From Deltaproteobacteria bacterium RBG_16_64_85 (GTDB taxonomy: Bacteria; Desulfobacterota; Deferrimicrobia; Deferrimicrobiales; Deferrimicrobiaceae): a DNA stretch of 64,000 nucleotides. Under the pieces are notes generated by a model, which was not told the DNA's origin, searched no databases, and saw only the letters and a list, made by a program, of their open reading frames with translations. A program made the translations under genes and the position numbers. The DNA is taken from positions 3,669 to 67,668 of the forward strand of contig MGQW01000072.1 of the NCBI GenBank assembly GCA_001798885.1, in the 5' to 3' direction. Below, piece by piece: positions 9,981 through 59,950 of this stretch. How positions within the stretch are numbered: the first letter of the stretch is position 1; every line of letters starts with the position of its first letter.

Positions 9981-10460
9981 CTAGAGCGCGGAGAGCTCCT
10001 TCTCGATCAGTTGGACGTGGCCCTTTTCGAAAGCTGCGAGGTGGTCGAACACCTTCTTCACGTCCGGGCTTTTCGACTTCGAAGAGGCGTCGCTGAACAG
10101 CCCCAAGGCTTCCTTCTCGAGCGAGAGCGCCAGCTCCAGGACTTCCTTCTTCCCCTTCAGTTTCGCGATCTTTCCGAGCAGCTCCTTGTGGGTGTCCTGC
10201 ACCAGCTCGTCGATGTCGGGAAGTCCTTCCCTGCCGAGAATGTCCTTGTAGGGGGCCCAGCACTCGGAGCGCACGTTCTCGTCGAATTCGTTCTCCAGGA
10301 TGAGAAAGTGCCCCTTCTCGTCCATCGCGAGCTTTTCGAGGGTCTTCCGGAGCGATTCGTCCGCGACGAGCTTCCGGGCGCGCTTGTAGAAGACGTACGC
10401 GGCGATCTCGGACTCGATCCCCAGGTTCAGATACTTGAGCGCCTCTTCGCTGAATTTCAT
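9981..10460 (-). CDS. ferritin-like / rubrerythrin-type di-iron protein (no rubredoxin domain)
   Basis: ATG 10460 inside ORF 9981..10607. 159 aa with two E...EKGH pairs (ESEI..MDEKGH and LEKEA..FEKGH). Confidence 0.75.
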   Translation of the reverse strand: MKFSEEALKYLNLGIESEIAAYVFYKRARKLVADESLRKTLEKLAMDEKGHFLILENEFDENVRSECWAPYKDILGREGLPDIDELVQDTHKELLGKIAKLKGKKEVLELALSLEKEALGLFSDASSKSKSPDVKKVFDHLAAFEKGHVQLIEKELSAL

Positions 10461-23510: not shown

Positions 23511-23599
23511 GCGCGACAGGCGCCGGATCGTTCGACGTCCCGCCCCGCGTCCCCGGCGCTCGTTCCGTTCCTTCCACCCGGATCCTCGGTTCGTGGCTT

Positions 23600-23634
23600 A
23601 AAAAAAACCCCCGGCTCCTTTCGGGGGCCGGGGG
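23600..23634 (-). terminator. rho-independent terminator ending the porin-cytochrome operon
   Basis: On the minus strand, CCCCCGGC-loop-GCCGGGGG followed by 8 T. It lies 46 nt after the decahaem gene stop. Confidence 0.7.
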
Positions 23635-23679: not shown

Positions 23680-26208
23680 CTATGGAGCTACGAATTCCAG
23701 CGACAGCTGCGGCACTGTGACACCCGCCACGCCGCGCGGCTCCCTGATCGACCCGCCCATCGCGATGAAGTGGCTTCTTGCCGTGTCGGAATCGTGGCAA
23801 TGACCGCACGCCGATGTCGCCGGCGTGTTCACCAGGTCGGTGGCGTTCGGCACGCTGGCCCGGGCCGCGTTGATATTAGCCGCGGTATTATCCGCGCCCG
23901 TAGTGGTTTTCGCGGTAGTCAGAAAACGGCCGGTCGTCTGGATGTTCTGGTACAGGTTGTTCAAGTGGCACTTCCCGCAGTGGGTCAGGTCGCCGGGAAA
24001 GGCGATCTCGTCCCCTTGGAGGAGGACGCCGTCCAGGCGGTTGCGGATGTCCACGAAGTTGGTGGTCCGCTTGGCGGCCCCGTGCAGCCCGTGGATCAGC
24101 TCCTTGAAGTTGTTGGAGACTTCGGGGTACTGCAGCGGATTGCTCCCGAAGAGGGCCACGATGTCGGGGTTGATCGGGCTGGCCGTGATGGTGCGGCCGC
24201 TGGAGGACAGGTTGGGGTTGTGGCACATCACGCAGACCTGCGCGTTGCTGACGCGGTTCCCGCCGTGCCCCTCGAAGATCTCGTGGCACTCCAGGCAGCC
24301 GACCGGCGTCCCGGTAATCGGATTGTTGCTGTTGGTGTAACCGCTCTCGACGGCCACGCGGCGGACCCGGTCGCCGGTGACCGGTTTCACGACCGAGAAG
24401 GTGTGGCGGCCGACGTTATCCAGTCCAGGGATGCCATCCACGTCCGCCCCGTTGGTCTGGGTGAAATACCCCTGGAGGGCGACCGCCCGCATTTGCGCGC
24501 CGACCGGGAACGCGTTCGCCCTCTGTACCGAATATTGCGTGAACCCGACGTTGTCGAACGCGACGATCGGCAGGCCGATGATGGAGAGACTCTCCGGCTG
24601 CCCCGCGGTCCTGCCGAGGTTGTTGTAGTCAAGGGGTTCTGCGACCCCGTCCTGCGGCAGCGCATAGGCGAACAGGAAGCTCGGGCCGCCGCTGAAACCG
24701 CTGGGACGGGTGATCGTGGTGCTGCCGAGATTCACGAAAGCGCCGTCCTTCTTGATCCAGAACTTGATCGTCGCCACGTTGGTGCCCTCGTCCACCGTGA
24801 CGTTGTCGATCCCGTACTCGAAGCTTACCAGCGTGCCGGGAAGCTGCGGGTTGTTGGGCGTCGCGTTCTCTGTGGCGTGGGCTTCCTTTATGGCAAGCAG
24901 CGTACCCGATGGCGGATGGCAAAAAACGCAATTGGCGTCAGTCGTTTGGATGCTGCCTATGCCGTGACCGCCGCCGGTCGCGAAGTTGACGTTGACGTGG
25001 CAAGAGCCGCACCCCGTGCGCGTCGGCCGGTTCTGCCAGTTGGCGTAGGTGTTGTCGGCATCCGTCCCCTGGTGGCACCTCGTGCAGTTCCGGATGTCCT
25101 GGGGATAGGTCACCTCGCTGAAGTTGCCGAGTTCGCCGATATTCTGGACGAGGCCGGGGGTGTTGGGGGTGTGGTTGTGGATCTTGTGCACGAGGTTGAC
25201 CAGGTTGGCGTTATCCCAGCCCCCGCCGGCCGGGTTGCCGGCGATCTCGAGCTTGGCATTGTGGCAGATCTGGCAGAACTTGTATTCGCGGCGGCCGCCG
25301 CCGTGGATCGCCAGCGGGTCGTGGCACACGTTGCAGGCTGAGGTGGAGACGTCGTTCTTGGCGGGATACGCGCCCGGCGCCGGAATCGCACCCGTCCCCC
25401 CGCCGACCGGGGGCACCACGTCCAGGAATGCGTTCGCGGCCGGCCTTCTGCGGGACGTCGTGTGGTAGTACGTGTCGGTCGTGAAGAGATTGAGAGTTGC
25501 CGTATTGAGCGTATTGGGATTTCCTATTGAAAACTGTGTTCCCGCCCGCACGAGCACGTTATCGGCGTAACCGTCCGAAACGCGGACGGCGGTGGTCGGG
25601 AAGGTATAGGAGTAGACGCCGGTGGCGGGAGTTCCGGTAAAGACCGCTCCGGCGGCTCCGTCGGGCCGGTTCGCTCTGAAGGGCCCGCTGCCGCTCGCCC
25701 CGGGGGTTAACACGAAGCCGTTCCACTCGTCGGCGCCCCCGTTCGTGCCGGGAACCATCTTGGCGAGGAGGAACGACACGAAGGCGAGATTGTCATTGAT
25801 CCCGGAGCCGGACTTGGTACGCAGGTCGATGCTGGGGGTGATGTCGACTCCGTTGGCGTCGCTCGCAGCGAAGGTGAAGTTCACCGTTACGGGAACGTTG
25901 TCCCCGCTGGGCGCGCCGAAGTCGACGGAAGTGATGGTGATCGTTGCGGAACCGGTGGGCAGGGGGTTCCCGGTCGTCGGGTTGAGGCGGTGCATCGCGT
26001 GGACGCTGAACGGTTGCCCCGCGGAGTGGCAGAGGAAGCAGGTCTCATTCGACTGGAGCGCCGGCCCGGGACCGCCGGGAGGACCGGGAGGGCCGGCGGC
26101 GCCGGGAGCGCCGGGAGCGCCGGCGGCGCCATCCGAACCGCTGCATCCGAAGAACAGGAGCGGCACGATCAGCGAGAAAAGCCCTAACCATAAAAGCGTC
26201 TTCCTCAT
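23680..26208 (-). CDS. decahaem c-type cytochrome lipoprotein (outer-surface type)
   Basis: 842-aa ORF. Lipoprotein signal ...LLFFGC, a Gly/Ala/Pro linker, and 10 CXXCH motifs (CFLCH, CNVCH, CQICH, CTRCH, CGSCH, CVFCH, CLECH, CVMCH, CGKCH, CGHCH). Confidence 0.9.
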   Translation of the reverse strand: MRKTLLWLGLFSLIVPLLFFGCSGSDGAAGAPGAPGAAGPPGPPGGPGPALQSNETCFLCHSAGQPFSVHAMHRLNPTTGNPLPTGSATITITSVDFGAPSGDNVPVTVNFTFAASDANGVDITPSIDLRTKSGSGINDNLAFVSFLLAKMVPGTNGGADEWNGFVLTPGASGSGPFRANRPDGAAGAVFTGTPATGVYSYTFPTTAVRVSDGYADNVLVRAGTQFSIGNPNTLNTATLNLFTTDTYYHTTSRRRPAANAFLDVVPPVGGGTGAIPAPGAYPAKNDVSTSACNVCHDPLAIHGGGRREYKFCQICHNAKLEIAGNPAGGGWDNANLVNLVHKIHNHTPNTPGLVQNIGELGNFSEVTYPQDIRNCTRCHQGTDADNTYANWQNRPTRTGCGSCHVNVNFATGGGHGIGSIQTTDANCVFCHPPSGTLLAIKEAHATENATPNNPQLPGTLVSFEYGIDNVTVDEGTNVATIKFWIKKDGAFVNLGSTTITRPSGFSGGPSFLFAYALPQDGVAEPLDYNNLGRTAGQPESLSIIGLPIVAFDNVGFTQYSVQRANAFPVGAQMRAVALQGYFTQTNGADVDGIPGLDNVGRHTFSVVKPVTGDRVRRVAVESGYTNSNNPITGTPVGCLECHEIFEGHGGNRVSNAQVCVMCHNPNLSSSGRTITASPINPDIVALFGSNPLQYPEVSNNFKELIHGLHGAAKRTTNFVDIRNRLDGVLLQGDEIAFPGDLTHCGKCHLNNLYQNIQTTGRFLTTAKTTTGADNTAANINAARASVPNATDLVNTPATSACGHCHDSDTARSHFIAMGGSIREPRGVAGVTVPQLSLEFVAP

Positions 26209-26320
26209 CTTTTCCTCCTTTGGTCTGGTTGGTTGTTAACAACGGTGAAGCATGACAATCGATAACGGGTCCGCGCCCGCGCGCACGACATATTGAGGTC
26301 CTCCTGCCCGTCGATGGGAA

Positions 26321-26349
26321 AGCCCCCGCCGGAGCGGGGGCTTTTTTTC
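26321..26349. terminator. GC-rich hairpin between the 12-haem and 10-haem genes
   Basis: AGCCCCCGC-cgga-GCGGGGGCT. The T-run is on the plus strand and the A-run on the minus, so for the minus-strand operon it is at best a weak or partial terminator or a processing site. Confidence 0.4.
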
Positions 26350-26371
26350 GGATCCTTTCCTGCCGGCCCGG

Positions 26372-29278
26372 TCACGGCCGGGTGAGCAACGTGGGCGTGC
26401 CTGCGGCGGCCGGGTCCAGGTCCCGGATGGAGTCGTAGAGAAGCTGGAGGACGTACCTCGGGTTGTGCACGTAGCCGCACGGCTCCTTCTGGACGACCTG
26501 GTAGTTGTAGGCCGCCCGGAGCAGCTTGGCATCGAAGACGTTGTACCGGTTTGCGAAGACCGCCTCGTTCGCGTCGACGTTGCCGTTCCCGTTGTTGTCC
26601 TTGAACCAGTATGGGTATGTTGCCGGGTCGTAGGCGATCTGCGCCGGCCGGTTCGCCGCCGCATACGCCTGGATGGCAATCAGCAGCCGGTTCACGACGT
26701 TGTCGGTGCCATTGACGCCGGTGCCCCAGATCTCACGGTAGATCCCCTCGGTTACGTTTCCGTTCCCGTTGTAGTCGGTCCCCCCCAGTGGAGGGAACCT
26801 GATCGACCGGAAGCGGGCCGCATCGGCGGCGTTGTCCGGCACCGGGACCGACAGGTGGCAGACCGCGCAGTACTCCGTCTTCGGAAACATCGTGTGGTTG
26901 TTCTCGTTCAGGTCGGCCGTCCTGCCCATGTGGCACTCGATGCACGTGTCGCGGGCGGGGGTGTGGACGAGCCTTCCCGAGTAGACCTGGTTGTCGTATT
27001 CGTAGCCGCCCCTGACCTCGGTGCCGAAGAAGGTCGCCGCGGCGGCGAAATAGTGGATGTTGATGAACGTCAGGTTGTTGATCGAGTTGTCCAGGGGATC
27101 GTTCGCGATGGCGGTGTCCACCTGGACCTTGGAGGCCTGGCCCTGGTGGCAGACCATGCACAGGTTGCTGGCATCGGCCAGGGTCTTCCCTACCCCTGAG
27201 GGGAAGACCACGTTGTCGAGCGCGTCGCCGGCGGCGCGCCGGGCGTACCGCGTGGTCCCGTCGCCGTCACTGCTGTGGCAGGCGGCGCAGGAGATCTTGC
27301 TGCCCAGCTTGGCGGAGGTGTTGACGACCCCGTCCTTCACGAAGTCGATGTAGCCGTACTTGCTATGGCACTTGGCGCAGGAGGTCGGAATGGACCCGTC
27401 CACGTCCCAGTGGCGGAACGGCTCGCCGGTGAAGTCGGCGTGGCCCGACCTCGACCATTCCGCGAGCGGCTTGACGTACTTGGGACTCGCGGGGTCGTTG
27501 CTGTGGCACGGGGTCGTGCCGTAGCAGGAGCTGACCATCGCGGCGTTCACCTTGAGCTGCCCGTTGTCGTAGGCCACGACGTTCACGCTGGGCCAGATGA
27601 TGTTGAACGAGTGATTGTGGATGTCCCCTTCCTGCAGCCCGAGCCCGAAGGTCTTGCGGATCGCCGATGAGGAGGTTTTGGGCATGTGGCAGGTCGAGCA
27701 CCGGCCGACGCCGGTCCCCTCAGGGTCGTAGGGAGCCTGGGCCATGACGGCCTCTTCTCCGATGTGCCGGACCACCGCGGTCCGGACGGCGGCGGGGTTG
27801 GACTTGACGTCGTTGGGCGTCAGGCTGAAATCGTCAGCGTGGCAAGCGAGGCACAGGCTGTTGTCGGAATCCTTCGTCGCGAACGTCACGCCATCCCGGG
27901 TGACGGAATCCTTGATCTGGTGGTCGTCTCCGGGGTTCGCCTTCGGGTTCCCAGCTGCTTTATGCGGATTGTGGCATCCCCAGCAGGTGGTGTCGGTGCT
28001 CTTGTCGGGCCCGTGCGGCCCCTGCTCCAGGTCGGTCCACGCCTGGTGGTGCTGCAGGGATGCGATGTACTTCGGAAAGTTGTATCCCAAGTACCAGTTC
28101 CGGTATGCCGTATAAATGCTCAGCGTGGGGGACGCGGCGCCGTAGTATGCCGTCGTTGTGTTGAGGATGACGAAGGGATTTCCCGCGGAGTTGTCGATCG
28201 AACTTTCGCCCGGGAACGGGAACGTAAGGACGCCCCCGACCAGGCGGGCCGGGAACTCGAGGTTGAGCGACATCCCCGCCAGCGTGGCGTTCCCCTCGCC
28301 GCGCTGGTGGCAGTTGCCGCAAACTTGGTCGGCGAGCCGGATGCCGGCGACCCCGAGGCGCTCGAGATTCGCGGGATTGGTGATGAAGGCCGGGTTCCCG
28401 CTGCTGTTCACGTGCTGGGCGCCCGGCCCATGGCAAGCCTCGCACCCGATGTTGAGCTCGACGTAGCCGGAGACGACCTCGGAGACGTTGGCGCCGGCGT
28501 ATGCCTGGGTCTGGGAGGCGAGGGACAGCCCGGTCTGGTGGCAACCCGCGCACCGGTTCTCCCAGGACCTCGCCGTCCCCAGCTTGGTCGCCGTCGCGTT
28601 CAGCGCGCCGAACTGGGCGACCAGGTTGTCGGTGCCGTAGGCCTGCGTGTACCGGGGGGTGTTCGTCCCGCTGTACCAATGGGTGGCGTTGTACGCCTCG
28701 TACTTTTTCGTGACCTCGTTGTACTGGACGGGGGAGATGTAGTAGCTCTTGCCGACCTTGGTGTGGTACCGTTGCTTCCAGTACCCGTTTCCGCCCTGCG
28801 TCCTCTGGACCTCGAACTCCACGCCGGCGATGCTGATGATGTGCTTCCCGTTGACGATTTTGAGGATCGGTGCGTTGGGGCGGCTGTTCTTCAGGGCGGT
28901 CCCGTTCGCGTTCGCCTCGATGAGGCTGTCGGTGGCAGGGCTGTTGAAGTCGAGCGTGTCCTTGAAGTCGTCCTGCCCGTTCCCGTTCGCGTCGTTGACG
29001 AAGATGGCGTCGCCAAGCTCGGCCACGGTCTTCAGCGGCGCGTTGTGGAGCGACTTCGACCAGCCGGTGAACTGGTCCGGGTGGCAGTTCTTGCACGCTT
29101 CCGAACCGATGTAGCCGCCGGCGGCGGCGAGGGCCGGGTCTCCCTTCTGGACCGTCCCCGTCGGGGTGACTCCCGGACCGATCGCCCCTTCGCGGTTCCC
29201 GGACCCGCCGCAACTGGCCAGGAGGGCCAGAAGGAGAAAACTTGCGGTGACGGTGATGTGCATTCCGATCCTTTTCAT
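26372..29278 (-). CDS. dodecahaem c-type cytochrome lipoprotein
   Basis: ATG 29278 (GGAGGG upstream) inside ORF 26372..29317. Signal ...LLALLASCGG. 12 CXXCH motifs plus one C-YGTTP-CH. Confidence 0.9.
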   Translation of the reverse strand: MKRIGMHITVTASFLLLALLASCGGSGNREGAIGPGVTPTGTVQKGDPALAAAGGYIGSEACKNCHPDQFTGWSKSLHNAPLKTVAELGDAIFVNDANGNGQDDFKDTLDFNSPATDSLIEANANGTALKNSRPNAPILKIVNGKHIISIAGVEFEVQRTQGGNGYWKQRYHTKVGKSYYISPVQYNEVTKKYEAYNATHWYSGTNTPRYTQAYGTDNLVAQFGALNATATKLGTARSWENRCAGCHQTGLSLASQTQAYAGANVSEVVSGYVELNIGCEACHGPGAQHVNSSGNPAFITNPANLERLGVAGIRLADQVCGNCHQRGEGNATLAGMSLNLEFPARLVGGVLTFPFPGESSIDNSAGNPFVILNTTTAYYGAASPTLSIYTAYRNWYLGYNFPKYIASLQHHQAWTDLEQGPHGPDKSTDTTCWGCHNPHKAAGNPKANPGDDHQIKDSVTRDGVTFATKDSDNSLCLACHADDFSLTPNDVKSNPAAVRTAVVRHIGEEAVMAQAPYDPEGTGVGRCSTCHMPKTSSSAIRKTFGLGLQEGDIHNHSFNIIWPSVNVVAYDNGQLKVNAAMVSSCYGTTPCHSNDPASPKYVKPLAEWSRSGHADFTGEPFRHWDVDGSIPTSCAKCHSKYGYIDFVKDGVVNTSAKLGSKISCAACHSSDGDGTTRYARRAAGDALDNVVFPSGVGKTLADASNLCMVCHQGQASKVQVDTAIANDPLDNSINNLTFINIHYFAAAATFFGTEVRGGYEYDNQVYSGRLVHTPARDTCIECHMGRTADLNENNHTMFPKTEYCAVCHLSVPVPDNAADAARFRSIRFPPLGGTDYNGNGNVTEGIYREIWGTGVNGTDNVVNRLLIAIQAYAAANRPAQIAYDPATYPYWFKDNNGNGNVDANEAVFANRYNVFDAKLLRAAYNYQVVQKEPCGYVHNPRYVLQLLYDSIRDLDPAAAGTPTLLTRP

Positions 29279-29306
29279 GTAGAAACCCTCCGTCGGTGGA
29301 TATCGG

Positions 29307-30044
29307 TTAAAAGTCATGGCAGACCCGGCACGAGCGGTTGTTGCTCTTGGACCGGATGCGGTTCGCCTTGAAATCCTTCGGATGCGGGTTGACGCGCAGG
29401 TTCCCCGTCCTGGCCGAGTGGCAGGTGAGGCAGACGTCCCCCTCGGGATGGCACGACTGGCACGACGCCAGGTTGCGCCTGGCCTCGGCGGCGTGCCCGT
29501 CCGGGAAGGAGGCGGTGTACCGCTGCCCCGACGGGGCGCTCAGGTTGTGGTCCTTGACCGACCGGTTGGCGAGCCCAAGCCGCGTGTGGCAGTTCGAGCA
29601 GAATTGCTGCTCGTGGCAGCGGGCGCACTGCTGCTGGTTCGTCTGGGCCTGCATCGGGTGGATGGAGACCCAGTCGCTGCGGTGGCTGTCGGGCTTGATG
29701 TCCCGCTTGTACTGGCTCCGGGAGAGATTCGCGTTGATGCCCCCGCCCTTGTGGCAGTCCTGGCATGTCCCCTGGTCGTGGCATTCAGCGCAAAGGGCGT
29801 CGGGCCGCGATGCGAGGACCCGGTGCTCCTTGTCCCAACCGCTGCCGTGGTTCGGCTGGATCCCGGAATCCTTGTGGCATTCGGCGCATTCGGGGAGCTT
29901 CAGCTCCCGGTAGGCCTTGTGGTCCTCCCGGCCGAACGCCGTGACCGCGATCATGACCGCCGGGAGAAGGATCAGGAAGATGCGAATCAGCGGATTTTTC
30001 AAGTGTCTTTCCTCCTCTATCGACCGGGCGTCAGAAGCGTACAT
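29307..30044 (-). CDS. periplasmic octahaem c-type cytochrome
   Basis: 245-aa ORF with an N-terminal hydrophobic segment and 8 CXXCH motifs (CAECH x2, CQDCH, CARCH, CSNCH, CQSCH, CLTCH, CRVCH). Its start overlaps the porin-like gene stop by 14 nt. Confidence 0.9.
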   Translation of the reverse strand: MYASDARSIEEERHLKNPLIRIFLILLPAVMIAVTAFGREDHKAYRELKLPECAECHKDSGIQPNHGSGWDKEHRVLASRPDALCAECHDQGTCQDCHKGGGINANLSRSQYKRDIKPDSHRSDWVSIHPMQAQTNQQQCARCHEQQFCSNCHTRLGLANRSVKDHNLSAPSGQRYTASFPDGHAAEARRNLASCQSCHPEGDVCLTCHSARTGNLRVNPHPKDFKANRIRSKSNNRSCRVCHDF

Positions 30045-31290
30045 CCAAGGCGACCCGTCCCGAGAATTCGTTCTCGGACTGGCGGGTCACCTTGTCTTCC
30101 ACCCGGAGCCTGGCGGTCATGTTCTTCCGCACCTCGTACGATCCCCCCGCCCAGTACTTCTTCGCCGAGAAGTCGTCCGTCATCGAATCCCTCTGGAAGA
30201 CGTCGTAGGCGACCCCCGCTGCGAGGTTTGCTTTCTTGAAGGTGTAGTCGGCCGAGAGGTCGAGGCCGGTCAGGTCCCCGGGGTATCCCCGGCGGACGTC
30301 CACGGCCGCCCGGATCCCGAGCCCCTCGACCTGCTTCGGACGGAACCGGGCGCCCAGGGAGCCGATGTCCGCCGTCGGGCCTTCATAGTCGGCCCGGGTG
30401 TAGGAGCCGAAGAGGGTCACCTGGGGAGTGACGATGTAATCCACCCGCCCCAGTACTTCCTTGTACCGTGTGACCGCAAAGACCGTGAAGATCGAGTCGG
30501 CGTCGAAGTTGGGGTACGACTGGAAGTACTCCCCCGTGATCGTGAGCAGGCTGGTGAAGGGGATGAGCTTTACGCCCGCGAGGAGCTCGCTGCTGGCCTC
30601 GTGCAGGATGTCGTAGCGCCAGTCCACGTAGGCCTTCGCCTTCTTGTAGAATCCCTGGTCGGCGTGGACTCCCAGCATCTCCCGGACAATGTCGGTATCG
30701 TTGTACTTCCGCAGGTAGCTCAGCTCGATATTCGTGTTGTGGAGGACCGTCCCGTCCTTGAGGAACGACGCGCCCGCCGAGGCCCCGAGGAGGAAGTCCC
30801 CGGCCCGGCTCAGGTCGGTGGTTTCCCGGAACCGCACGTCGTACCCGGCGAAGGCCGAGAGCGCCACGGGACCCAGGTTGCGTGCGTCGACCCTGACGCC
30901 GTCGATCGTCCCCGCACCCGCGCCCACGACGACGAATTGCCGCCCCAGCCGGATGTCCCCGCGGCTCCCCGGAAGGGCGTAGTTCACGTAAAGGTAGTAG
31001 AGCCGGCCCAGGATATCGTCCGAGTCGCTGAAGACTCCATCTTGGCCGGCGCCGAGCTGCTTGGAGACCCGGCCGTACCCAAAGGCGCTGAACCGGCCGG
31101 CGTTGTCGATCGCCGTCGCGCCGATCTTGAGGTACTCCACGACGTCGCTCTGGTTTTTATCCAGGAACGGGTCGTTGTACCAGAGGTACTGCGTCGAGCT
31201 CTGGAACCGGACGTCCGCCGCGCGGGCCGGCCCCGGAGCCAGGAAGAGAAGGAGAAGCACGACGGGGAAGAGCCATCTCTTTCCTTTCAT
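30031..31290 (-). CDS. porin-like outer-membrane beta-barrel protein (no haem motifs)
   Basis: 419-aa ORF. Signal peptide ending PARA-AD, alternating hydrophobic pattern rich in Y/G/D/R, C-terminal ...ALDVRF. First gene of the cytochrome operon. Confidence 0.75.
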   Translation of the reverse strand: MKGKRWLFPVVLLLLFLAPGPARAADVRFQSSTQYLWYNDPFLDKNQSDVVEYLKIGATAIDNAGRFSAFGYGRVSKQLGAGQDGVFSDSDDILGRLYYLYVNYALPGSRGDIRLGRQFVVVGAGAGTIDGVRVDARNLGPVALSAFAGYDVRFRETTDLSRAGDFLLGASAGASFLKDGTVLHNTNIELSYLRKYNDTDIVREMLGVHADQGFYKKAKAYVDWRYDILHEASSELLAGVKLIPFTSLLTITGEYFQSYPNFDADSIFTVFAVTRYKEVLGRVDYIVTPQVTLFGSYTRADYEGPTADIGSLGARFRPKQVEGLGIRAAVDVRRGYPGDLTGLDLSADYTFKKANLAAGVAYDVFQRDSMTDDFSAKKYWAGGSYEVRKNMTARLRVEDKVTRQSENEFSGRVALDVRF

Positions 31291-31297
31291 TACGCCC

Positions 31298-31423
31298 CTA
31301 CCTCCTGTTGGTGTGAACGCGGAATGCGCGCTGAAAGCGGAAGAGTGAAGATCCTTTTCCGGCAGGATGTGCTGACCTTCGACGGTTATCGTCGACGATG
31401 GCGAGTACTTTCTTTTGTGGCAT
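31298..31423 (-). pseudogene. relic of a response-regulator 5' end / 41-codon upstream ORF ending 7 nt before the porin ATG
   Basis: MPQKKVLAIVDDN... matches MPQKKVLVVDDDN of the REC-PilZ gene at 36281 and then diverges. The TAG lies inside the porin RBS region (aacAGGAGGTAGgggcgtaATG). Confidence 0.5.
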
Positions 31424-31436
31424 GTCGCTTTATGCT

Positions 31437-31451
31437 AGCAAGTTGTATGCC
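31437..31451 (-). promoter_or_regulatory. sigma-54-type -24/-12 element upstream of the Pcc operon
   Basis: The minus strand reads GGCATacaacTTGCT, against consensus GGCAC-N5-TTGCW, with correct GG-to-GC spacing. About 135 nt upstream of the porin ATG. Conserved in copy B. Confidence 0.5.
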
Positions 31452-31546
31452 CTGAAAGAGAAGGATGCACCTAACTATAATTACTTGAAAAACAAGAAGT
31501 TAGCAATTCATCAGGCGATGCGGAAATGCCGGTTGGTTGAAATGGT

Positions 31547-31579
31547 GGGCAAATTCCCGATCGGCTTGGGGATTTTCCC
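31547..31579 (-). promoter_or_regulatory. candidate enhancer (UAS): two 12-bp imperfect palindromes 21 bp apart
   Basis: On the minus strand, GGGAAAATCCCC and GGGAATTTGCCC with a start-to-start distance of 21 nt, about 100 to 140 nt upstream of the -24/-12 element. An A/T-rich tract lies between them and the promoter. Conserved in copy B. Confidence 0.4.
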
Positions 31580-31866
31580 GTACGGCCCCTAGATCCATCC
31601 AAGGTGTTGCACTTGTACATGAATTCCTCTTCGAGGAAAGCAAGACCGCGCCCCCGGCCCGGGATTCTTCTCCGTCCATCCATAGGGGTGCGTGAACCCT
31701 TGCCGCGAGAAAATAAGTGCCCCGATGGGGTTTATGAAGGGCTAAAATAAAAAAATATGCCGTTCCGGACGCCAACCATCCCAAAGACCGCTTTTTCCCG
31801 GATAGGCGAGGAGATAAGAGGGCGCGATCCCACCGGCACCCAGCGGATGGGAACGCGTCGAAAAAA

Positions 31867-32769
31867 ATGAAGCGCTGGTTGATCCTTTCGATGTGCTTGC
31901 TGGCCGTTTCAGGTTGTTCCCGGGAGGAAAAACCGTCTCAGGCGAAGGTCCCCCCGCGGGAACAATTCCTGATCGGGTTGATTCCCGAGCTGAACATCTT
32001 CAAGCAGCTCGAGCGGTACGAGCCCATGGCCGGTTATCTCTCCGGGAAAACAGGCTTGAGGGTCACGCTGAAAATCTTCCCGCGGTACGGGAACATCATC
32101 GACAATTTCCGGCTGGCGGGGATGGACGGCGCCTTTTTCGGAAGCTTCGCCTACGCGCTGGCCCACGCGAAGCTGGGCGTGGAAGTCCTCGCGCGCCCGT
32201 TGGCTCTCGACAACGCTTCGACCTACCACGGGTTGATCTTCGTGAGGAAGGACAGCGGGATAAAAACCTTCCGGGACATGAAGGGGAAGCGGTTCGCCTT
32301 CGTGGACAAGGCGACGACCGCCTACCTTCTCACGCGTGCGTACTTTCATTCTCACGGGATATCGAATTGCAAAGTATACCTGGGGGAATGCTATTTCGCC
32401 GGGACGCACGAGGACGTCGTCTTCGACGTGCTCAATAACAAGGCCGATATCGGAGCCGCCAAGAATACCGTTTTCAACCGGCTCGCGAAGGCGGACCCCC
32501 GGATTGCGAACGAGCTGGTGATCCTGGAAAAATCCCCCGAAGTGCCGGAGAACGGCCTCGCCCTCCGGAAGGAGATCGACGAATCCTTGCGAATCCGGAT
32601 GAGGGATACGCTGCTGAACATGCACCTGGATCCGGAAGGGAAGAAGGTGCTGGAGCAGTTCGGTGCGCAGAAATTCATCGAAACCGCGAACGCGGATTAC
32701 GCCATCGTCGTGAAGTATGCGGAAGAGATCCACCAGAACCTCGCCACTTACGACTACATCAACGACTGA
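31867..32769 (+). CDS. PhnD-like (phosphate/phosphonate type) periplasmic substrate-binding lipoprotein, orphan
   Basis: 300-aa ORF with lipobox LLAVSGC. Type-2 SBP-like sequence. No permease or ATPase gene nearby. Its stop overlaps the kinase start (TGATG). Confidence 0.75.
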   Translation: MKRWLILSMCLLAVSGCSREEKPSQAKVPPREQFLIGLIPELNIFKQLERYEPMAGYLSGKTGLRVTLKIFPRYGNIIDNFRLAGMDGAFFGSFAYALAHAKLGVEVLARPLALDNASTYHGLIFVRKDSGIKTFRDMKGKRFAFVDKATTAYLLTRAYFHSHGISNCKVYLGECYFAGTHEDVVFDVLNNKADIGAAKNTVFNRLAKADPRIANELVILEKSPEVPENGLALRKEIDESLRIRMRDTLLNMHLDPEGKKVLEQFGAQKFIETANADYAIVVKYAEEIHQNLATYDYIND

Positions 32770-34220
32770 TGAAAAGAAAGATCGTCCTAGGACTAACCGT
32801 TTATTCCGTTGTCTTCCTGCTGGCCGGCGTGTACGTCGTCCACACCATCCGCACCGCCACGGCGGATCTCGACCGGCTGATCACGCTCCACCAGGTGGAA
32901 ATCCTGCGGGAGCACTATCTCGTCCAGATCCAGCGGATCCAGACGGATCTGACCCTGAAGGACACGAGCCACGAGAGGACGTTCGATACCGTGTTCCGCA
33001 ATATCGTCAACATGGGGGACATCATCGATACCTGCTTCGACTGCCATCATTCCGAGCAGGGGACGGAAAGGCTCAAGGAGCTGAAGAGGCGGACGAAGGA
33101 GTACAAGGAGGGCCTGAGCAGGGTCCTGACCATTCGCGCCAACCCCTCGCGGCTGAAGGCGGAGGCGGAGGCTGCCTTCCAGGTCGGGGAGGAGCTGACC
33201 ACAAGAGTCCGGGACATGATCGACATCACGACCTCCCGGCTCGGGGAGATTACCAAAAAGGCGATGAACAGGATCGAGCTCACCAAGAACATCCTCTACG
33301 GGCTCGTGGCGCTTGGTCCATTGGTATCCGCGTTCCTCGGGTTCATCTTCATCTCGGGACTGACGCGCCCCGTCAAGGTCCTGCTGGAGTCCACCCGGAA
33401 GCTGAAAGGCGGGGATCTGGAGCACCGCGTGGAGGGGCTGAAGGACGAGTTCGGCGAGCTGGCCACCTCGTTCAACGAGATGGCGACTTCCCTGAAGGAG
33501 CAGATGTTGAAGATGCAGCGCACGGAGAAGATGGTGATCGTAGGCGAGCTGGCGGCGGGGCTGGCCCATGAGATCAAGAATCCGCTCGCGGGAATCAAGG
33601 TGGCGATGCAGGTCCTGTCCGAAGAAGCCGGCCTGTCCGAGGAAGACCGGGGGGTTGTAAAGAAGGTGGGCCAGGAGGTCGCGCGACTCGAATCGCTGAT
33701 GAAAAACTTCCTGAACTTCACCCGGCCGGCGAAACCCCAGATGTCGGAACTGAACGTCAACAACCTGATCAATACCATCCTCACCTTCTACGTGAAGAGC
33801 CGGTCGATCTCGCCGGGCCGACCCGACGGGATCCGGATCGAGAAGGATCTTCAACCGCTTCCGGACACGATGGCCGACCCGATGCAGCTGCAGCAGATTT
33901 TCCTGAACCTCGTCCTGAACGCCCTCGACGCCATGCCGGGCGGAGGGACACTGGGAGTCCGGACGTTCCTCGAAGAAGGGTCCGACCTCATCCATATCGA
34001 GATCTCGGACACGGGCAGGGGGATCAGTGATGAGAACGCCGACAAGATCTTCCAGCCGTTCTTCACCACCAAGCCCAAGGGGACCGGGCTGGGGCTCGCG
34101 ATCTCCAGGCAGTTGATCGAGCAGCACGGAGGCTCCATAACGGCAACAGGGAAACCGTCCGGCGGAACCGTATTTAAAATTCAACTGCCCCTGAAAACCG
34201 CTGCCGGGTCGACGGCATGA
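32769..34220 (+). CDS. sensor histidine kinase with periplasmic CXXCH (haem-c) motif, HAMP, HisKA and HATPase domains
   Basis: 483-aa ORF. TM1 at residues 5-24, TM2 around 178-200, CFDCH at residues 89-93 (nt 33033..33047) between them. HEIKNPLAGI H-box, plus N and G boxes (DTGRGI, GTGLGL). Confidence 0.9.
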   Translation: MKRKIVLGLTVYSVVFLLAGVYVVHTIRTATADLDRLITLHQVEILREHYLVQIQRIQTDLTLKDTSHERTFDTVFRNIVNMGDIIDTCFDCHHSEQGTERLKELKRRTKEYKEGLSRVLTIRANPSRLKAEAEAAFQVGEELTTRVRDMIDITTSRLGEITKKAMNRIELTKNILYGLVALGPLVSAFLGFIFISGLTRPVKVLLESTRKLKGGDLEHRVEGLKDEFGELATSFNEMATSLKEQMLKMQRTEKMVIVGELAAGLAHEIKNPLAGIKVAMQVLSEEAGLSEEDRGVVKKVGQEVARLESLMKNFLNFTRPAKPQMSELNVNNLINTILTFYVKSRSISPGRPDGIRIEKDLQPLPDTMADPMQLQQIFLNLVLNALDAMPGGGTLGVRTFLEEGSDLIHIEISDTGRGISDENADKIFQPFFTTKPKGTGLGLAISRQLIEQHGGSITATGKPSGGTVFKIQLPLKTAAGSTA

Positions 34221-35608
34221 AGACAAAAGGCCGTGTTTTCCTCCTGGACGACGACGACCTCATCGTATCCATGCTTGCGAGGGCGTTGAAGGGCGAGGGG
34301 TACGACGTCCAAGCGGAAACCGATCCGGGCGAGGCCGTCGAAAAAATTCGGTCGTTCTCCCCCGACATCGTCATGCTCGACCTCAAGCTGCCCGGCATCA
34401 GCGGGATGGACATCCTGAAGGAGATCACGAACCAAAGGATCGGGACCCAGGTGGTGATGCTGACGTCGGACGACAGCGCGGAAAGCGCGGTGAAGGCGAT
34501 GAAATCAGGGGCTGTGGATTACCTGACCAAGCCCTTCGACATGGACCTGGTCAAGATCGTCGTCGCATCGATCGTGGAGAAAGGGAACCTGAAGCAGGAG
34601 GTCGAATACCTCCGGAAGATCAGCTCCGACCTGGTTTACAACGAGATCATCGGGGGTACCGGGGTCGTCAAGAAGTTGAAGGAGAAGGCCGAGAAGCTGG
34701 CGCAGGCCGGCGTTCCCTCGGTGCTGATCACCGGGGAAAACGGGACCGGCAAGGAGATGTTCGCGAGGTACATCCACCACGCGATGCACGGCGAGGGTCC
34801 CGGCGGGTACGCGCCGTTCGTCGGGGTGAATTGCGCCGCGATTCCGGAGTCCCTCATCGAGAGCGAGCTCTTCGGCCACGAAAAGGGGTCGTTCACCGAC
34901 GCCAAGACGGAGAAGAAGGGCGTCTTCGAGCTGGCCTCCCAGGGGTCCATCCTCCTGGACGAGATCGGGGAGATGAAGCCGAACCTCCAGGCCAAGCTCC
35001 TCCGGGTGCTCGAGGAGAGGAAGGTGCGGCACGTGGGGGGGAAACACGACATCCCCATCGACGCGACCGTGTTCACCACCACCAATCGGAACCTCGAGGA
35101 GGCGGTGGAAAAGGGGGAGTTCCGGATCGACCTGTATTACCGGCTGAACGTCTTTTCCCTGCACATCCCCCCGCTCCGGGAGCGGCAGGAAGACATCCTT
35201 CCCCTCGCGCGGTATTTTCTCGAATTTTTCTCCACAAAGTACAATCGTTCGGCCATCAAGGGCTTTTCCCCGGAGGCGGAGAAGCTCCTGCTCTCCTACG
35301 GCTGGCCGGGAAACGTGAGGGAGCTCAGGAACGTCGTCGAAAGGATCGTCGTCCTGGAGAGCGACGAGAGGGTCCTCCCCGATCATCTCCCGAAGGAGAT
35401 CCTGTTCGGGAAAGGGGGTGCGAGAACGGTGTCCGCAGGCTCCGGAATCACCCTCCCCGATGCGGGACTGTCGCTCGACGATGTGGAAAAAAGCCTCATC
35501 CTCCAGGCGCTCGAGAAAACCGGGGGCAACAAGACCCAGGCTGCGAAGCTCCTGGGCGTCACGTACGACTCCCTCCGCTACCAGATCAAGAAGTTCGGGC
35601 TGGAGTAA
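34217..35608 (+). CDS. sigma-54-dependent response regulator (NtrC/Fis family enhancer-binding protein)
   Basis: 463-aa ORF. REC domain, AAA+ with GENGTGKE Walker A, ESELFGHEKGSFTDA (GAFTGA-type loop), C-terminal Fis-type HTH. ATGA overlap with the kinase gene. Confidence 0.9.
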   Translation: MKTKGRVFLLDDDDLIVSMLARALKGEGYDVQAETDPGEAVEKIRSFSPDIVMLDLKLPGISGMDILKEITNQRIGTQVVMLTSDDSAESAVKAMKSGAVDYLTKPFDMDLVKIVVASIVEKGNLKQEVEYLRKISSDLVYNEIIGGTGVVKKLKEKAEKLAQAGVPSVLITGENGTGKEMFARYIHHAMHGEGPGGYAPFVGVNCAAIPESLIESELFGHEKGSFTDAKTEKKGVFELASQGSILLDEIGEMKPNLQAKLLRVLEERKVRHVGGKHDIPIDATVFTTTNRNLEEAVEKGEFRIDLYYRLNVFSLHIPPLRERQEDILPLARYFLEFFSTKYNRSAIKGFSPEAEKLLLSYGWPGNVRELRNVVERIVVLESDERVLPDHLPKEILFGKGGARTVSAGSGITLPDAGLSLDDVEKSLILQALEKTGGNKTQAAKLLGVTYDSLRYQIKKFGLE

Positions 35609-35609
35609 G

Positions 35610-36281
35610 TCAGCAGGAAAGGAACTTCAGGCCCGCCGTGACGCAGTCCTGGGCAGTGGCGACCCACACCACTTCGGCGGTGGCTTCCGGAGGGACGAGT
35701 TTCAGAACCGGATCGTTTCCGGCGGCGACATGGGCCCGGACGCCTTGTCCCACTCTCAGGGGATATTCCGTTCGAAGCCTTAAGCCCCCCGTACCGACAT
35801 CCACAATCTGGCCGCTCAGGTTATGAAGGTCGTACTGGGCTTCTTCGGGAGCGGGCTCTAGGATCGAGATGCGCAGGGGGATGCGGCAGATGTGCCTCGC
35901 ATGTTTCCTTTTCTGTGCGTATTCGCCGGTGCTCTTCAAAATGCCGTGAACCTCGGAGAGGTCGAACGGCTTCTCCAGGAATTGCACCGCCCCGCCGTTG
36001 TAAGCGCGTTGCCGGTTCACTTCGCTGGCGTCCCCGCTCATGATGATCACGGTTGCGCCCGGCGAGATCTTGTCGATCTCCTCGAGGATCTCGAAACCGC
36101 TCATGTCCGGCAGGTGAATGTCGAGGAACACGTAATCGAAACGCTGCCTGCGAAGCTCGGCGAGCGCATCCGCTGCGTTTCCGACGATACAGGTATCGAG
36201 ATCCAGGCCAGTAAAGTCTTTTTCAAGCGCCCAGCAGATCAGGTTATCGTCGTCGACGACGAGCACTTTCTTCTGTGGCAT
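35610..36281 (-). CDS. response-regulator receiver + PilZ domain protein
   Basis: ATG 36281 inside ORF 35610..36353. VLVVDDD...FLDIHLPDMSG receiver motifs. C-terminal RKHAR (RxxxR) and DVGTGGLRL (DxSxxG-like) PilZ motifs. Confidence 0.8.
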   Translation of the reverse strand: MPQKKVLVVDDDNLICWALEKDFTGLDLDTCIVGNAADALAELRRQRFDYVFLDIHLPDMSGFEILEEIDKISPGATVIIMSGDASEVNRQRAYNGGAVQFLEKPFDLSEVHGILKSTGEYAQKRKHARHICRIPLRISILEPAPEEAQYDLHNLSGQIVDVGTGGLRLRTEYPLRVGQGVRAHVAAGNDPVLKLVPPEATAEVVWVATAQDCVTAGLKFLSC

Positions 36282-36294
36282 GTCGCTTCCTACC

Positions 36295-36309
36295 AGCAAG
36301 TTGCATGCC
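36295..36309 (-). promoter_or_regulatory. sigma-54-type -24/-12 element upstream of REC-PilZ gene
   Basis: The minus strand reads GGCATgcaacTTGCT. Only 13 nt separate the motif from the ATG, so the transcript would be nearly leaderless. Uncertain. Confidence 0.35.
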
Positions 36310-36404
36310 CAGAAAGAGGAGGATGCGCCTAACTGCAATTCCTTTGAAAACAAGAAGTTTGCAATTCATCCGACGATGCCGCAATACCGGTTGGTGGACA
36401 TAGT

Positions 36405-36437
36405 AGGCAAATTCCCACTCGGCTTGGGGATTTTCCC
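36405..36437 (-). promoter_or_regulatory. candidate enhancer palindromes, copy B
   Basis: On the minus strand, GGGAAAATCCCC and GGGAATTTGCCT, 21 nt start-to-start, at the same relative position as in copy A. Confidence 0.35.
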
Positions 36438-36617
36438 ATACGGCCCCTCGTCCATCCAAGGCATGGCACCAGAAAAGATCCAGGAGCCCCCTCTCCGAAA
36501 CGGTTGATTTCGGCGCCCGGTTTGCGTATCCTGATACGGCTTTCCGCCAGGGATACCGCCGGCAGAATCCGCACCGCAATAACCGATAGAACACTCAACT
36601 TGGTGAGGAGGACGCAC

Positions 36618-54866: not shown

Positions 54867-56921
54867 ATGGTTCCCCTGCGCAGGGACTCGTTTCGCATCC
54901 TCGTACCGGTTGTCTTCCTTGCGCTTTGCCTGTTCGCAATGGCTCCCCGTTCCGCAGCCTGGGCCCTGGACAACGGGCAATGCTACGACTGTCACGGCGA
55001 TTCCGGGATCCTTACGTGGTCGGCAAAGGAGAAGGAGGGCAACGTCAAGGCGGGGGGGCCGGAGAAGGCACATCGCAATGTGGCGCCCTTCCCCGGGATC
55101 TCCCTTCACGTCGACCCCGGCAAGTACAAGGCCTCGGTGCACTCGTACCTTTCCTGCACCACCTGCCACGGGGATATCAAGGACCTCCCCCACAACTCCC
55201 GGCTTGACCCCGTCGACTGCTCGGGCTGCCACTCCGAGGCGGCGGCGGTCTACAAGAAGAGCCGGCACGTGGTGGTGCACGGCAAGGGTGCGAAGGCGGA
55301 TACCCCGCGGTGCTTCGACTGCCACGGCGCGCACGCGATCCCGAAATCGTCCGTTTCCACTTCCCCGGTCTACTTCCGGAACCTCGCGGCGACCTGCACG
55401 CGGTGTCACGGAATCCGGGAGGTGACCGACCGGTCCGACATCCCCATCCCCGGCGCCGCCCGCATGTACGAGAAGAGCATCCATAACCGGGCGATCGTCG
55501 AAAAAGGGCTGAACAAGTCCGCCACCTGCACCGACTGCCACGGGTCGCACGATCTCAAGGACCGGCTCGACCCCTCCTCGCCCATCTTCCGGACGAACAT
55601 CCCCGCCACCTGCGGGAAGTGCCACTACGGCGTCTTCGCGATCTTCCGGGACAGCGTGCACGGGGTGGCGCTCGCCCGCGGCGTCCCCGACGCCCCGGGC
55701 TGCACGGACTGCCACGGGGAGCACGACATCCGGCAGGCGTCCGACCCCGGTTCCTCGGTTTCGTTCGAGGCGGTATCCCGGACGACGTGCCCTTCCTGCC
55801 ACTCCGCGGAGAAGCTTTCCAGCCGGTACGGGATCTCCATCGAAAAAGTGAAGGGGTACGAGGAGAGCTTCCACGGCCTCTCCCAGCGGCTGGGGGATAA
55901 GACGGTGGCCGACTGCTCCTCATGTCACGGCGTCCACGAGATCTTCCGTTCCTCCGACCCCCGCTCGACCGTCAACATGAAGAACCTCCAGGTCACCTGC
56001 GGGAAATGCCACCCCGGGGCCACGGAGAACTTCGCCAAGGGGAACATCCACGTGGGCCCGGGCGGGATCGGGGGACAGGTCAAGTTCTGGGTGGAGAAGA
56101 TCTACATCTGGATGATCGCCGTGGTTATCGGCGGGATGCTGCTCCACAACGGCGCCGACTACCTTCGGAAGCTGCAGGAGATCTACCGGAAGCGGAGGGA
56201 GTGGGAGCATCCCGGGTACGAGCGGATGAACGCCTCGGAGCGGATCCAGCACTTCCTCATCCTGACGACGTTCTTCGCCCTCGTCCTCACCGGCTTCGCC
56301 CTGAAATTCAAGTGGTCGATCCCGTTCCTCGCGGACGCGACGAACGTCGCATTGAGGGGAACGGGGCACCGGGTGGCCGCCGTCCTCATGGTGGCGACCT
56401 GCATCTACCACCTGCTGTACGTGATCTTCACGGAGAGGGGGCGCGATCAATTCGCGCGGATGATGCCCCGCCTGCAGGACGCCCGGGACGTCGTGGAGAT
56501 GCTCAAATATTATGCCGGGATCTCAGCCCGCAAGCCGAAGTTCGGCCGGTACAGCTACATCGAGAAGGCCGAGTACCTCGCGCTGGCGTGGGGATCGATC
56601 GTCATGGTCGTCACGGGGTTCCTGCTCTGGTTCCAGGGCGAGACGCTCAAGCACCTTCCCATGTGGGGGTTGGACGTGGCGACGATCGTCCACTATTACG
56701 AGGCGATCCTGGCGACCCTGGCGATCATCGTCTGGCATCTGTATTACGTGATAATCAACCCCGACTTCGCCCCGCTCTCGTTCACCTGGATCGACGGGAA
56801 ACTTTCCCGGCACCACATGGAGCGTGAGCACGCGCTCGAGCTTGAGGAAATCGACGCGGCTTCACTGCCGGGGAAGGCCCCGGCGCCGGAAACCACACGG
56901 ATCGCCCCGGAGGGATCATGA
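54867..56921 (+). CDS. fused 11-haem c-type cytochrome / FdnI-HydC-like cytochrome b membrane protein (module 1)
   Basis: 684-aa ORF. Signal peptide, then 11 CXXCH motifs, then TM helix, then a four-helix b-type domain (ERIQHFLILTTFFALVLTGFALKF ... IVHYYEAILATLAIIVWHLYYV). Confidence 0.9.
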   Translation: MVPLRRDSFRILVPVVFLALCLFAMAPRSAAWALDNGQCYDCHGDSGILTWSAKEKEGNVKAGGPEKAHRNVAPFPGISLHVDPGKYKASVHSYLSCTTCHGDIKDLPHNSRLDPVDCSGCHSEAAAVYKKSRHVVVHGKGAKADTPRCFDCHGAHAIPKSSVSTSPVYFRNLAATCTRCHGIREVTDRSDIPIPGAARMYEKSIHNRAIVEKGLNKSATCTDCHGSHDLKDRLDPSSPIFRTNIPATCGKCHYGVFAIFRDSVHGVALARGVPDAPGCTDCHGEHDIRQASDPGSSVSFEAVSRTTCPSCHSAEKLSSRYGISIEKVKGYEESFHGLSQRLGDKTVADCSSCHGVHEIFRSSDPRSTVNMKNLQVTCGKCHPGATENFAKGNIHVGPGGIGGQVKFWVEKIYIWMIAVVIGGMLLHNGADYLRKLQEIYRKRREWEHPGYERMNASERIQHFLILTTFFALVLTGFALKFKWSIPFLADATNVALRGTGHRVAAVLMVATCIYHLLYVIFTERGRDQFARMMPRLQDARDVVEMLKYYAGISARKPKFGRYSYIEKAEYLALAWGSIVMVVTGFLLWFQGETLKHLPMWGLDVATIVHYYEAILATLAIIVWHLYYVIINPDFAPLSFTWIDGKLSRHHMEREHALELEEIDAASLPGKAPAPETTRIAPEGS

Positions 56922-59939: not shown

Positions 59940-59950
59940 GGAGAGAAGGG

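Follow-up and report, generated by a model that had tools for sequence, protein, structure and literature searches.

The locus described here raises the question of how its host would move electrons through the outer membrane. In a 64,000-nucleotide stretch of the genome of Deltaproteobacteria bacterium RBG_16_64_85 (contig MGQW01000072.1; the whole stretch is hereafter the window), four genes between positions 23680 and 31290 encode a predicted outer-membrane barrel and three multihaem cytochromes, and we asked whether they represent a porin-cytochrome (Pcc) conduit of the Geobacter type. Our comparisons establish the gene content of the cluster, its homology to the Geobacter genes, the predicted folds and the conserved linkage of the genes, and we consider it highly probable that the cluster encodes a Geobacter-type conduit, homologous to OmbB-OmaB-OmcB from Geobacter sulfurreducens, which would pass electrons through the outer membrane.

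Inspection of the open reading frames places four co-directional genes on the minus strand, and all those described in an earlier note on this DNA are present. They comprise an OmbB-type porin gene (30031..31290, 419 residues), an octahaem cytochrome gene (29307..30002, 231 residues when read from TTG 30002, or 245 from ATG 30044), a 12-haem lipoprotein gene (26372..29278, 968 residues; the full open reading frame, 26372-29317, has 981) and a decahaem lipoprotein gene of the OmcA/MtrC family (23680..26208, 842 residues). Haem-binding CXXCH motifs number none in 30031-31290, which also encodes no cysteine, eight in 29307-30044, 12 in 26372-29317 and ten in 23680-26208. Since shuffled versions of the four proteins yield only about 0.01-0.06 such motifs, these counts, which are those given in the earlier note, lie far beyond chance.

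The porin, octahaem and 12-haem genes

The porin is a haem-free protein with a Sec signal peptide (..PGPARA, with ADVRF following) and the C-terminal sequence ..ALDVRF, both read directly in the sequence and both in agreement with its first description. It aligns end to end with G. sulfurreducens OmbB, with 41% identity over 412 columns (E 2e-98). An AlphaFold (AF2) model built on an alignment of 43 homologues has 22 beta-strands and a mean predicted local distance difference test (pLDDT) score of 88, and Foldseek comparison of this model with the PDB returned outer-membrane barrels only, led by the 24-strand pilus ushers FimD and PapC. The strand count, the confidence of the model and its barrel-only neighbours all support the proposal that the protein is a large outer-membrane barrel; for Pcc porins in general, the published prediction is 18-22 strands (PMC4245776). 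Searches with the porin against Pfam (E<=0.1), NCBIfam and PDB sequences gave no match, while the octahaem protein matched nothing in NCBIfam or the PDB and only the generic Cytochrome_C7 and Paired_CXXCH_1 families in Pfam. Because these libraries are uninformative, we assigned both proteins to families through their homologues and by direct comparison. A homologue search with the porin recovered 269 relatives, one of which, at 78% identity (L007), is labelled Candidatus Deferrimicrobiaceae, and an exhaustive profile search of 1.84 billion cluster representatives recovered 358 at E<=1e-10. Almost all members of full length have 390-450 residues, so the family is compact and specific.

The octahaem protein is 43% identical to OmaB (E 8e-71), with eight of eight CXXCH motifs aligned, and 41-49% identical to its Geobacteraceae counterparts. 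It carries a signal peptide without a lipobox, and an NCBIfam search gave no match to the DmsE/MtrA family (TIGR03508). The gene had been described as encoding 245 residues and overlapping the porin stop by 14 nucleotides, and this detail does not hold up well: a GAGGAGG motif lies 8 nucleotides 5' of TTG 30002, the homologues have their start at the corresponding place, and in identical contigs from sediment and aquifer metagenomes, the genes were independently called with 231 residues for this one and 968 for the next. TTG 30002 is thus the most likely start by all three indications, and the overlap is probably not real, being an artefact of picking the upstream ATG at 30044. With the starts at TTG 30002 and ATG 29278, genes 1 and 2 and genes 2 and 3 are each separated by a 28-nucleotide spacer.

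To find the Geobacter reference locus (L085), we used an OmcB probe, and from then on relied on the database record and the locus only. The probe proved 97% identical to a protein recorded at NCBI as OmcB of G. sulfurreducens and 40-57% identical to the third genes of Geobacteraceae loci. The order at the reference locus, tetR-ombB-omaB-omcB-tetR-ombC-omaC-omcC, is the published one. The likeness to the OmbB-OmaB-OmcB gene order noted earlier therefore extends to homology: since the porin, octahaem and OmcB-family comparisons go beyond gene order, we regard the cluster as a true Pcc homologue.

The third gene resembles its Geobacter counterpart in part only. Its start at ATG 29278, preceded by a GGAGGG ribosome-binding site, the independent gene calls, a lipobox (LLASC) and the motif count all agree with a 968-residue lipoprotein carrying 12 CXXCH motifs, as first proposed. 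Aligned pairwise with OmcB, the protein matches in its C-terminal ~340 residues only (24% identity), whereas comparison of the two families with hhalign gives a probability of 100% (E 1e-47, 452 columns), and the homologous span runs from about residue 422 to 966, corresponding to OmcB residues 134-715. Residues ~24-420 form an extra four-haem module, which includes a haem-free, beta-rich insert, resembles OcwA and has no OmcB counterpart. The family profile also matches OcwA (PDB 6i5b) collinearly in four segments (E 4.5e-22), namely haem 1, haems 2-4, a stretch in the middle and the helices at the C-terminus, and OmhA (6qvm) is matched more weakly. On these profile comparisons, the protein is chimera-like and only partly OmcB-like. 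It may also hold 13 haems: an atypical CX5CH motif (CYGTTPCH, residues 585-592, with C585, C591 and H592; 27505-27528, minus strand) aligns with OmcB haem 7, and a relative at locus L011 has a canonical CXXCH at this position and 13 motifs in total.

The mature N-termini of the two lipoproteins are alike, reading C-G-G-S-G-N-R-E-G-A-I-G-P-G in the window protein (29180-29210, minus strand) and C-G-S-E-N-K-E-G-S-I-G-T-G in OmcB (10060-10100 of the reference locus), while the next ~100-400 residues are unrelated. This shared segment could be a conserved docking or sorting signal.

A scan for porin loci with one genome per species gave 157 loci. The closest, with porins at 59-79% identity, belong to metagenome-assembled genomes (MAGs) labelled 'Deltaproteobacteria' or Deferrimicrobiaceae, and most of the others (36-42% identity) to Geobacteraceae, other Desulfuromonadales, Nitrospirota and Syntrophales; the Geobacteraceae include cultured Geobacter, Geotalea, Geomonas, Citrifermentans and Pelotalea. 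Across nearly all of 62 loci, a gene of 8 or 9 haems (~225-300 residues) lies within ~20-40 nucleotides 3' of the porin, and a large gene of 8-13 haems is usually third. The order of porin, 8- or 9-haem protein of ~230 residues and large 8-13-haem protein is found in about 60 loci, drawn from Geobacteraceae, Nitrospirota, Syntrophales and Deferrimicrobia-like genomes. This third gene is much more variable, in agreement with published reports that the surface lipoprotein is often replaced in omcB-type clusters (PMC6148476, PMC4245776). The porin and octahaem genes, for their part, diverge in parallel across ~60 loci.

As we envisage the conduit, the 22-strand barrel would be placed in the outer membrane and the octahaem protein, exported to the periplasm, would enter its lumen from the inside. 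The 968-residue lipoprotein would cap the barrel on the outside, and the two cytochromes would together form an unbroken chain of ~20 haems through the membrane.

The decahaem lipoprotein

The fourth gene had been called MtrC/OmcA-like and an addition to the Geobacter gene set, and we find the same: it encodes an OmcA/MtrC-family decahaem protein that has no counterpart in the omb-oma-omc order. The protein scores 307 bits against TIGR03507 over residues 104-821 (cut-off 209) and 128 bits against PF22113 in two stretches, which correspond to two MtrC/MtrF domain II/IV modules. Its AF2 model (pLDDT 83) alternates beta-rich and helical segments in a four-domain fold, and Foldseek comparison with the PDB gave significant matches only to MtrC, OmcA and MtrF (E 3e-19 to 2e-16; target template modelling scores 0.53-0.65).

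At the N-terminus (26035-26145, minus strand), a lipobox-like FFGC is followed by a linker of ten G-X-Y triplets. The haems are arranged as 1+5+4, the N-terminus holding one, domain II five and domain IV four; the canonical 5+5 layout lacks the CXXCH found here at residue 57 and has one more site at the end. At least 42 of 50 aligned homologues share the 1+5+4 layout, and members typically have FFGC or FYGC, 7-11 G-X-Y triplets and the extra haem ~30-35 residues past the anchor cysteine. By these features, the protein is a member of a populous 1+5+4 subfamily of OmcA/MtrC proteins. We had considered the G-X-Y linker a special feature of the window protein and dropped this idea, as the linker is near-universal in the homologues. 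Shewanella MtrC and OmcA also carry a similar one.

An intrinsic terminator 3' of the gene (23598..23629, minus strand; 23606-23629 in the terminator scan), found by scan and folding, consists of a GC-rich stem of -27 kcal/mol (z = -4.1) followed by T8 in the DNA, or U8 in the transcript; it is a convincing candidate on these values and bears out the strong terminator first placed there. The claim of a tightly packed four-gene operon fared less evenly. The tight packing stands for genes 1-3, with their 28-nucleotide spacers, and does not extend to gene 4, which is separated from gene 3 by 163 nucleotides containing an 11-bp GC-rich hairpin (26319..26344, minus strand; -28 kcal/mol, z = -2.4 on folding) with an 8-bp GC stem, A7 before it and only U3 after. 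This hairpin may terminate transcription weakly or in part, or it may stabilise the RNA. When read on the plus strand, it would make a good terminator, and no plus-strand gene ends there. A single operon of genes 1-4 is plausible from this arrangement, and gene 4 may be partly independent in transcription.

The position of decahaem-type genes also varies among the closest relatives. They lie 5' of the porin in two loci (L005, L006) and 3' of the OmcB-like gene in a third (L011), and other Deferrimicrobia-like loci have no decahaem gene and a different, 9-haem fourth gene. For instance, L006 (1-14000), the closest long relative with a porin 79% identical to that of the window, holds co-directional genes for a kinase, an NtrC-type regulator, two MtrC-type decahaem proteins, the porin, the octahaem protein and a 12-haem protein; because this order differs, the locus must have been rearranged relative to the window. 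Owing to the spacer, the hairpin and the other-side position in these relatives, it is uncertain whether gene 4 belongs to the same transcript or complex.

It is accordingly possible, though in our estimate doubtful, that the conduit consists of genes 1-3 only and that the decahaem protein is independently transcribed, does not interact with them, and, as a loosely associated surface cytochrome, serves another conduit or acts as a free reductase at the surface or outside the cell. The spacer with its stable hairpin, the gene's own strong ribosome-binding site, its shifting position and its absence from other Deferrimicrobia-like loci all fit this reading, as does a survey of Desulfuromonadia that places MtrC-like proteins mostly outside porin-cytochrome operons (PMC11492766). 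Read-through is nevertheless likely at a hairpin without a U-tract, and in three related genomes, decahaem-type genes have stayed beside the porin cluster although the loci were rearranged.

Four distant loci (L020, L044, L056 and L074), from Syntrophales-like and Geobacteraceae MAGs, also argue against such independence. There, the third gene, directly after an OmbB-type porin and a 9-haem periplasmic gene, encodes a canonical 5+5 OmcA/MtrC protein (TIGR03507, 420-445 bits) as the sole surface cytochrome. These loci show that an OmbB-type barrel can partner MtrC-type surface cytochromes. We found no description of such hybrid Pcc/Mtr clusters in the literature searched, and in recent surveys the MtrC-type components are assigned to a pathway separate from and unrelated to that of the Pcc type, or MtrC-like proteins are placed outside porin operons (PMC12133095, PMC11492766). 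The genetic coupling of OmbB/OmaB to MtrC-type caps supports a modular view of a conserved socket with a swappable cap, which has already been suggested for Geobacter clusters (PMC6148476).

Under our preferred reading, in which all four genes serve a Geobacter-type conduit, the decahaem lipoprotein could contribute in two ways. It might be an extra terminal reductase fed by the 12-haem protein, comparable to the passage from MtrC to OmcA in Shewanella, or it might be an alternative cap for the porin/octahaem module.

The promoter region and its putative control

The cluster had been described as preceded by a sigma-54-type promoter rather than by a TetR-type regulator. The second half of this description holds, as no TetR gene was found by Pfam among the genes neighbouring the window cluster, whereas the reference locus has TetR genes. 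The first half is qualified. A sigma-54-type -24/-12 element, GGGCATACAACTTGCT (31437..31452, minus strand), found by pattern search, sits 147-162 nucleotides 5' of the porin ATG and matches 8 of the 11 specified consensus positions. Equal matches are not enriched in the window over shuffled sequence, so match quality alone is not above chance and the credibility of the element rests on its context, which includes an adjacent gene for an NtrC-type activator.

The context also includes a duplication. K-mer comparison and MAFFT alignment identified a promoter region of ~220 nucleotides (31377..31598, minus strand) that is ~88% identical to 36240-36460 (minus strand), the upstream region and first 14 codons of a response-regulator/PilZ gene (35610-36281, minus strand, ATG 36281) that is the source of the duplicated promoter. 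The duplicated region includes the -24/-12 element, with a near-identical copy at 36295-36310, and an AT-rich stretch. Two palindrome-like boxes, GGGAAAATCCCC and GGGAATTTGCCC, lie 21 nucleotides apart in the promoter region and are candidate activator sites. Exact copies of the window element occur in none of 84 related loci, and the duplication is accordingly specific to this species.

The genes between the two copies, identified by Pfam, lie on the plus strand and are candidate regulatory genes. At 31867-32769 a phosphonate-binding-type periplasmic protein is encoded, at 32769-34220 a HAMP histidine kinase and at 34217-35608 the NtrC-type sigma-54 activator. The association is not confined to the window: in 13 distant loci, the porin gene has an NtrC homologue of 54-61% identity directly 5' of it, and six of these 13 have TGGCAT-N5-TTGC at -156 to -205. 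We suggest that the sigma-54 promoter would be driven by the adjacent kinase and NtrC-type system, and that it was captured by duplication from the response-regulator/PilZ gene, such that both genes probably answer the same signal. That one two-component system co-regulates the PilZ regulator and the conduit is a reasonable inference from this arrangement, and the duplicated promoter would then offer a small example of regulatory capture.

Between the element and the porin lies a remnant open reading frame of 41 codons (31298..31423, minus strand), recognised by translation and alignment, which begins MPQKKVLAIVDDN / MPQKKVLAIVDDNRRR and derives from the duplicated 5' end of the regulator. The frame ends in a TAG that overlaps with AGGAGGTAG, the ribosome-binding site of the porin gene. 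The remnant is probably the 5' leader of the operon mRNA, and any function for it is speculative. The predicted sigma-54 start falls ~3 nucleotides 5' of the remnant's ATG, which would leave this frame nearly leaderless; the response-regulator/PilZ gene has the same geometry.

These elements can be joined into a more ambitious proposal, which we think unlikely to hold as a whole. In it, the OmbB/OmaB socket would be a universal adaptor with interchangeable, unrelated caps, of which the host would deploy two together from a single locus, an OmcB/OcwA chimera and an MtrC-type decahaem protein. The N-terminal haem of the latter, held on its flexible G-X-Y tether and gained in exchange for the distal tenth haem, would plug into the complex, and the resulting branched Geobacter/Shewanella hybrid conduit would be switched on by a sigma-54 promoter copied from a PilZ gene encoding a cyclic di-GMP-related regulator.

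Electron flow and comparison with known systems

Several points weigh against reading the four genes as a Geobacter-type conduit for electron export. The N-terminal ~400 residues of the 12-haem protein lack an OmcB counterpart; the 163 nucleotides and the hairpin set gene 4 apart from gene 3, and in the closest relatives the decahaem gene lies on the other side of the porin; GGGCATACAACTTGCT misses three of 11 consensus positions; and many homologous clusters belong to taxa not known as metal reducers (Nitrospirota, Syntrophales). Moreover, localisation, complex formation and the direction of electron flow are all inferred.

The direction of flow bears on a further alternative, that the same machinery works in reverse and feeds an aerobic or other respiratory chain with electrons obtained outside the cell, be it from Fe(II), from a mineral acting like a cathode or from a syntrophic partner. 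Such conduits are reversible in principle, and Mtr-type systems occur in Fe(II) oxidisers (PMC4245776, PMC6148476); the homologous clusters in Nitrospirota and Syntrophales, neither of them a classical group of metal reducers, and the description of the phylum as facultatively aerobic (PMC9386147) point the same way. We nonetheless judge uptake quite improbable. OmbB-OmaB-OmcB, the closest homologue to have been characterised, serves Fe(III) reduction (PMC4282303), and the added surface cytochrome comes from a family of terminal reductases, OmcA/MtrC. The abundance of MBNT15 is correlated with iron, and its genomes have been interpreted as those of iron reducers (PMC9386147). In the window, we saw no oxidation marker of the Cyc2 or MtoA type. 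Hardly credible is the idea that the barrel is an ordinary diffusion porin beside periplasmic cytochrome genes, with no wire through the membrane: the porin's lack of its own Pfam, NCBIfam or PDB sequence match and a weak general-porin domain (PF13609) in some homologues would allow it, but against them stand the end-to-end homology to OmbB, a protein that co-purifies with its partners OmaB and OmcB (PMC4282303), the fact that porin and octahaem genes are almost always adjacent and have diverged in parallel across ~60 loci, the two lipoprotein cytochromes that follow in the cluster, and 22 strands where general porins have 16-18.

The physiological role of the conduit in this Deferrimicrobiaceae (MBNT15) bacterium is most likely respiratory electron transfer to insoluble acceptors outside the cell, such as Fe(III) or Mn(IV). 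A second cytochrome cluster lies on the plus strand at 54867-62937, 23 kb from the conduit genes, and may supply the conduit with electrons from the inner membrane and periplasm. It encodes a CbcL-like protein of 684 residues with 11 CXXCH motifs and a cytochrome b561 domain, a 418-residue protein with 11 CXXCH motifs, a 539-residue cytochrome b561-domain protein and a 683-residue protein with 16 CXXCH motifs, and it resembles 'cluster 1' of the Candidatus Deferrimicrobium genome paper (PMC9386147). In that paper, the Deferrimicrobiota (MBNT15) are predicted to respire iron, and the outer-membrane step is left as a 'hypothetical Fe(III) reductase'. We found no prior description of a porin-cytochrome cluster in MBNT15/Deferrimicrobia in the literature searched, an absence that is not proof. 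The window cluster provides a concrete, testable candidate for this step. The OmbB/OmaB module, best known from Geobacter, is distributed over several phyla. None of these findings overturns current understanding.

Among known systems, OcwA of Thermincola potens, a nonahaem terminal reductase, is collinear with the 968-residue family, although the similarity is local and low. Its host is Gram-positive and has no outer-membrane barrel, and the window protein is nearly twice as long, with a clearly OmcB-type C-terminal half. The Geobacter conduits ExtABCD, ExtEFG and ExtHIJKL belong to the same architectural class of barrel, periplasmic multihaem cytochrome and surface lipoprotein or lipoproteins, of which ExtABCD has two surface lipoprotein cytochromes (PMC6148476), but they differ in haem numbers and gene orders, with dodecahaem periplasmic partners and pentahaem lipoproteins. 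The NCBIfam search gave no specific Ext match for the window proteins, only a sub-threshold match of 26 residues to the ExtKL model.

Similarly, Shewanella MtrCAB/OmcA (PDB 6r2q, 4lm8, 4lmh, 3pmq) shares the plan of a barrel, an inner cytochrome and a surface lipoprotein. By both its hidden Markov model match and its predicted fold, window gene 4 belongs to the same family as MtrC and OmcA, with 1+5+4 haems in contrast to the canonical 5+5. The periplasmic partner has eight haems and is not MtrA-like, whereas MtrA has ten, and the porin, with its 22 predicted strands, has no match to the MtrB family PF11854. An Mtr-type identity for the porin/periplasmic pair was rejected, as neither MtrB nor MtrA family matches were found. 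The barrel in the MtrCAB crystal structure has 26 strands. An older sequence-based prediction for MtrB gave 28 (PMC4245776).

The closest comparison remains with OmbB-OmaB-OmcB and OmbC-OmaC-OmcC of G. sulfurreducens (GSU2739-2737 and GSU2733-2731), which have the same order of porin, octahaem cytochrome and surface lipoprotein. OmcB and the window lipoprotein share ~550 homologous residues, 12 canonical haem motifs and an N-terminus of the form C-G-(G)S-x-N-[KR]-E-G-x-I-G; OmcB has 742 residues against 968, and the window protein adds the N-terminal four-haem module and has CX5CH at one site. The Geobacter cluster is a tandem duplicate with upstream TetR-family genes (orfR/orfS), which are usual in Geobacter loci but do not define the function, and includes no OmcA/MtrC-family gene, whereas the window cluster is a single copy with an additional decahaem protein, a putative sigma-54 promoter and an NtrC-type two-component system, in a host of the Deferrimicrobiota (MBNT15) lineage rather than of the Desulfuromonadia. 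On sequence grounds, the core is an ordinary OmbB/OmaB member in a new lineage, and its variant features are the enlarged OmcB/OcwA-like cap, the 1+5+4 decahaem protein and the putative sigma-54/NtrC control through a duplicated promoter. For the Geobacter counterpart, the complex in purified form transfers electrons across the membranes of liposomes, and Fe(III) reduction is impaired when it is deleted (PMC4282303).

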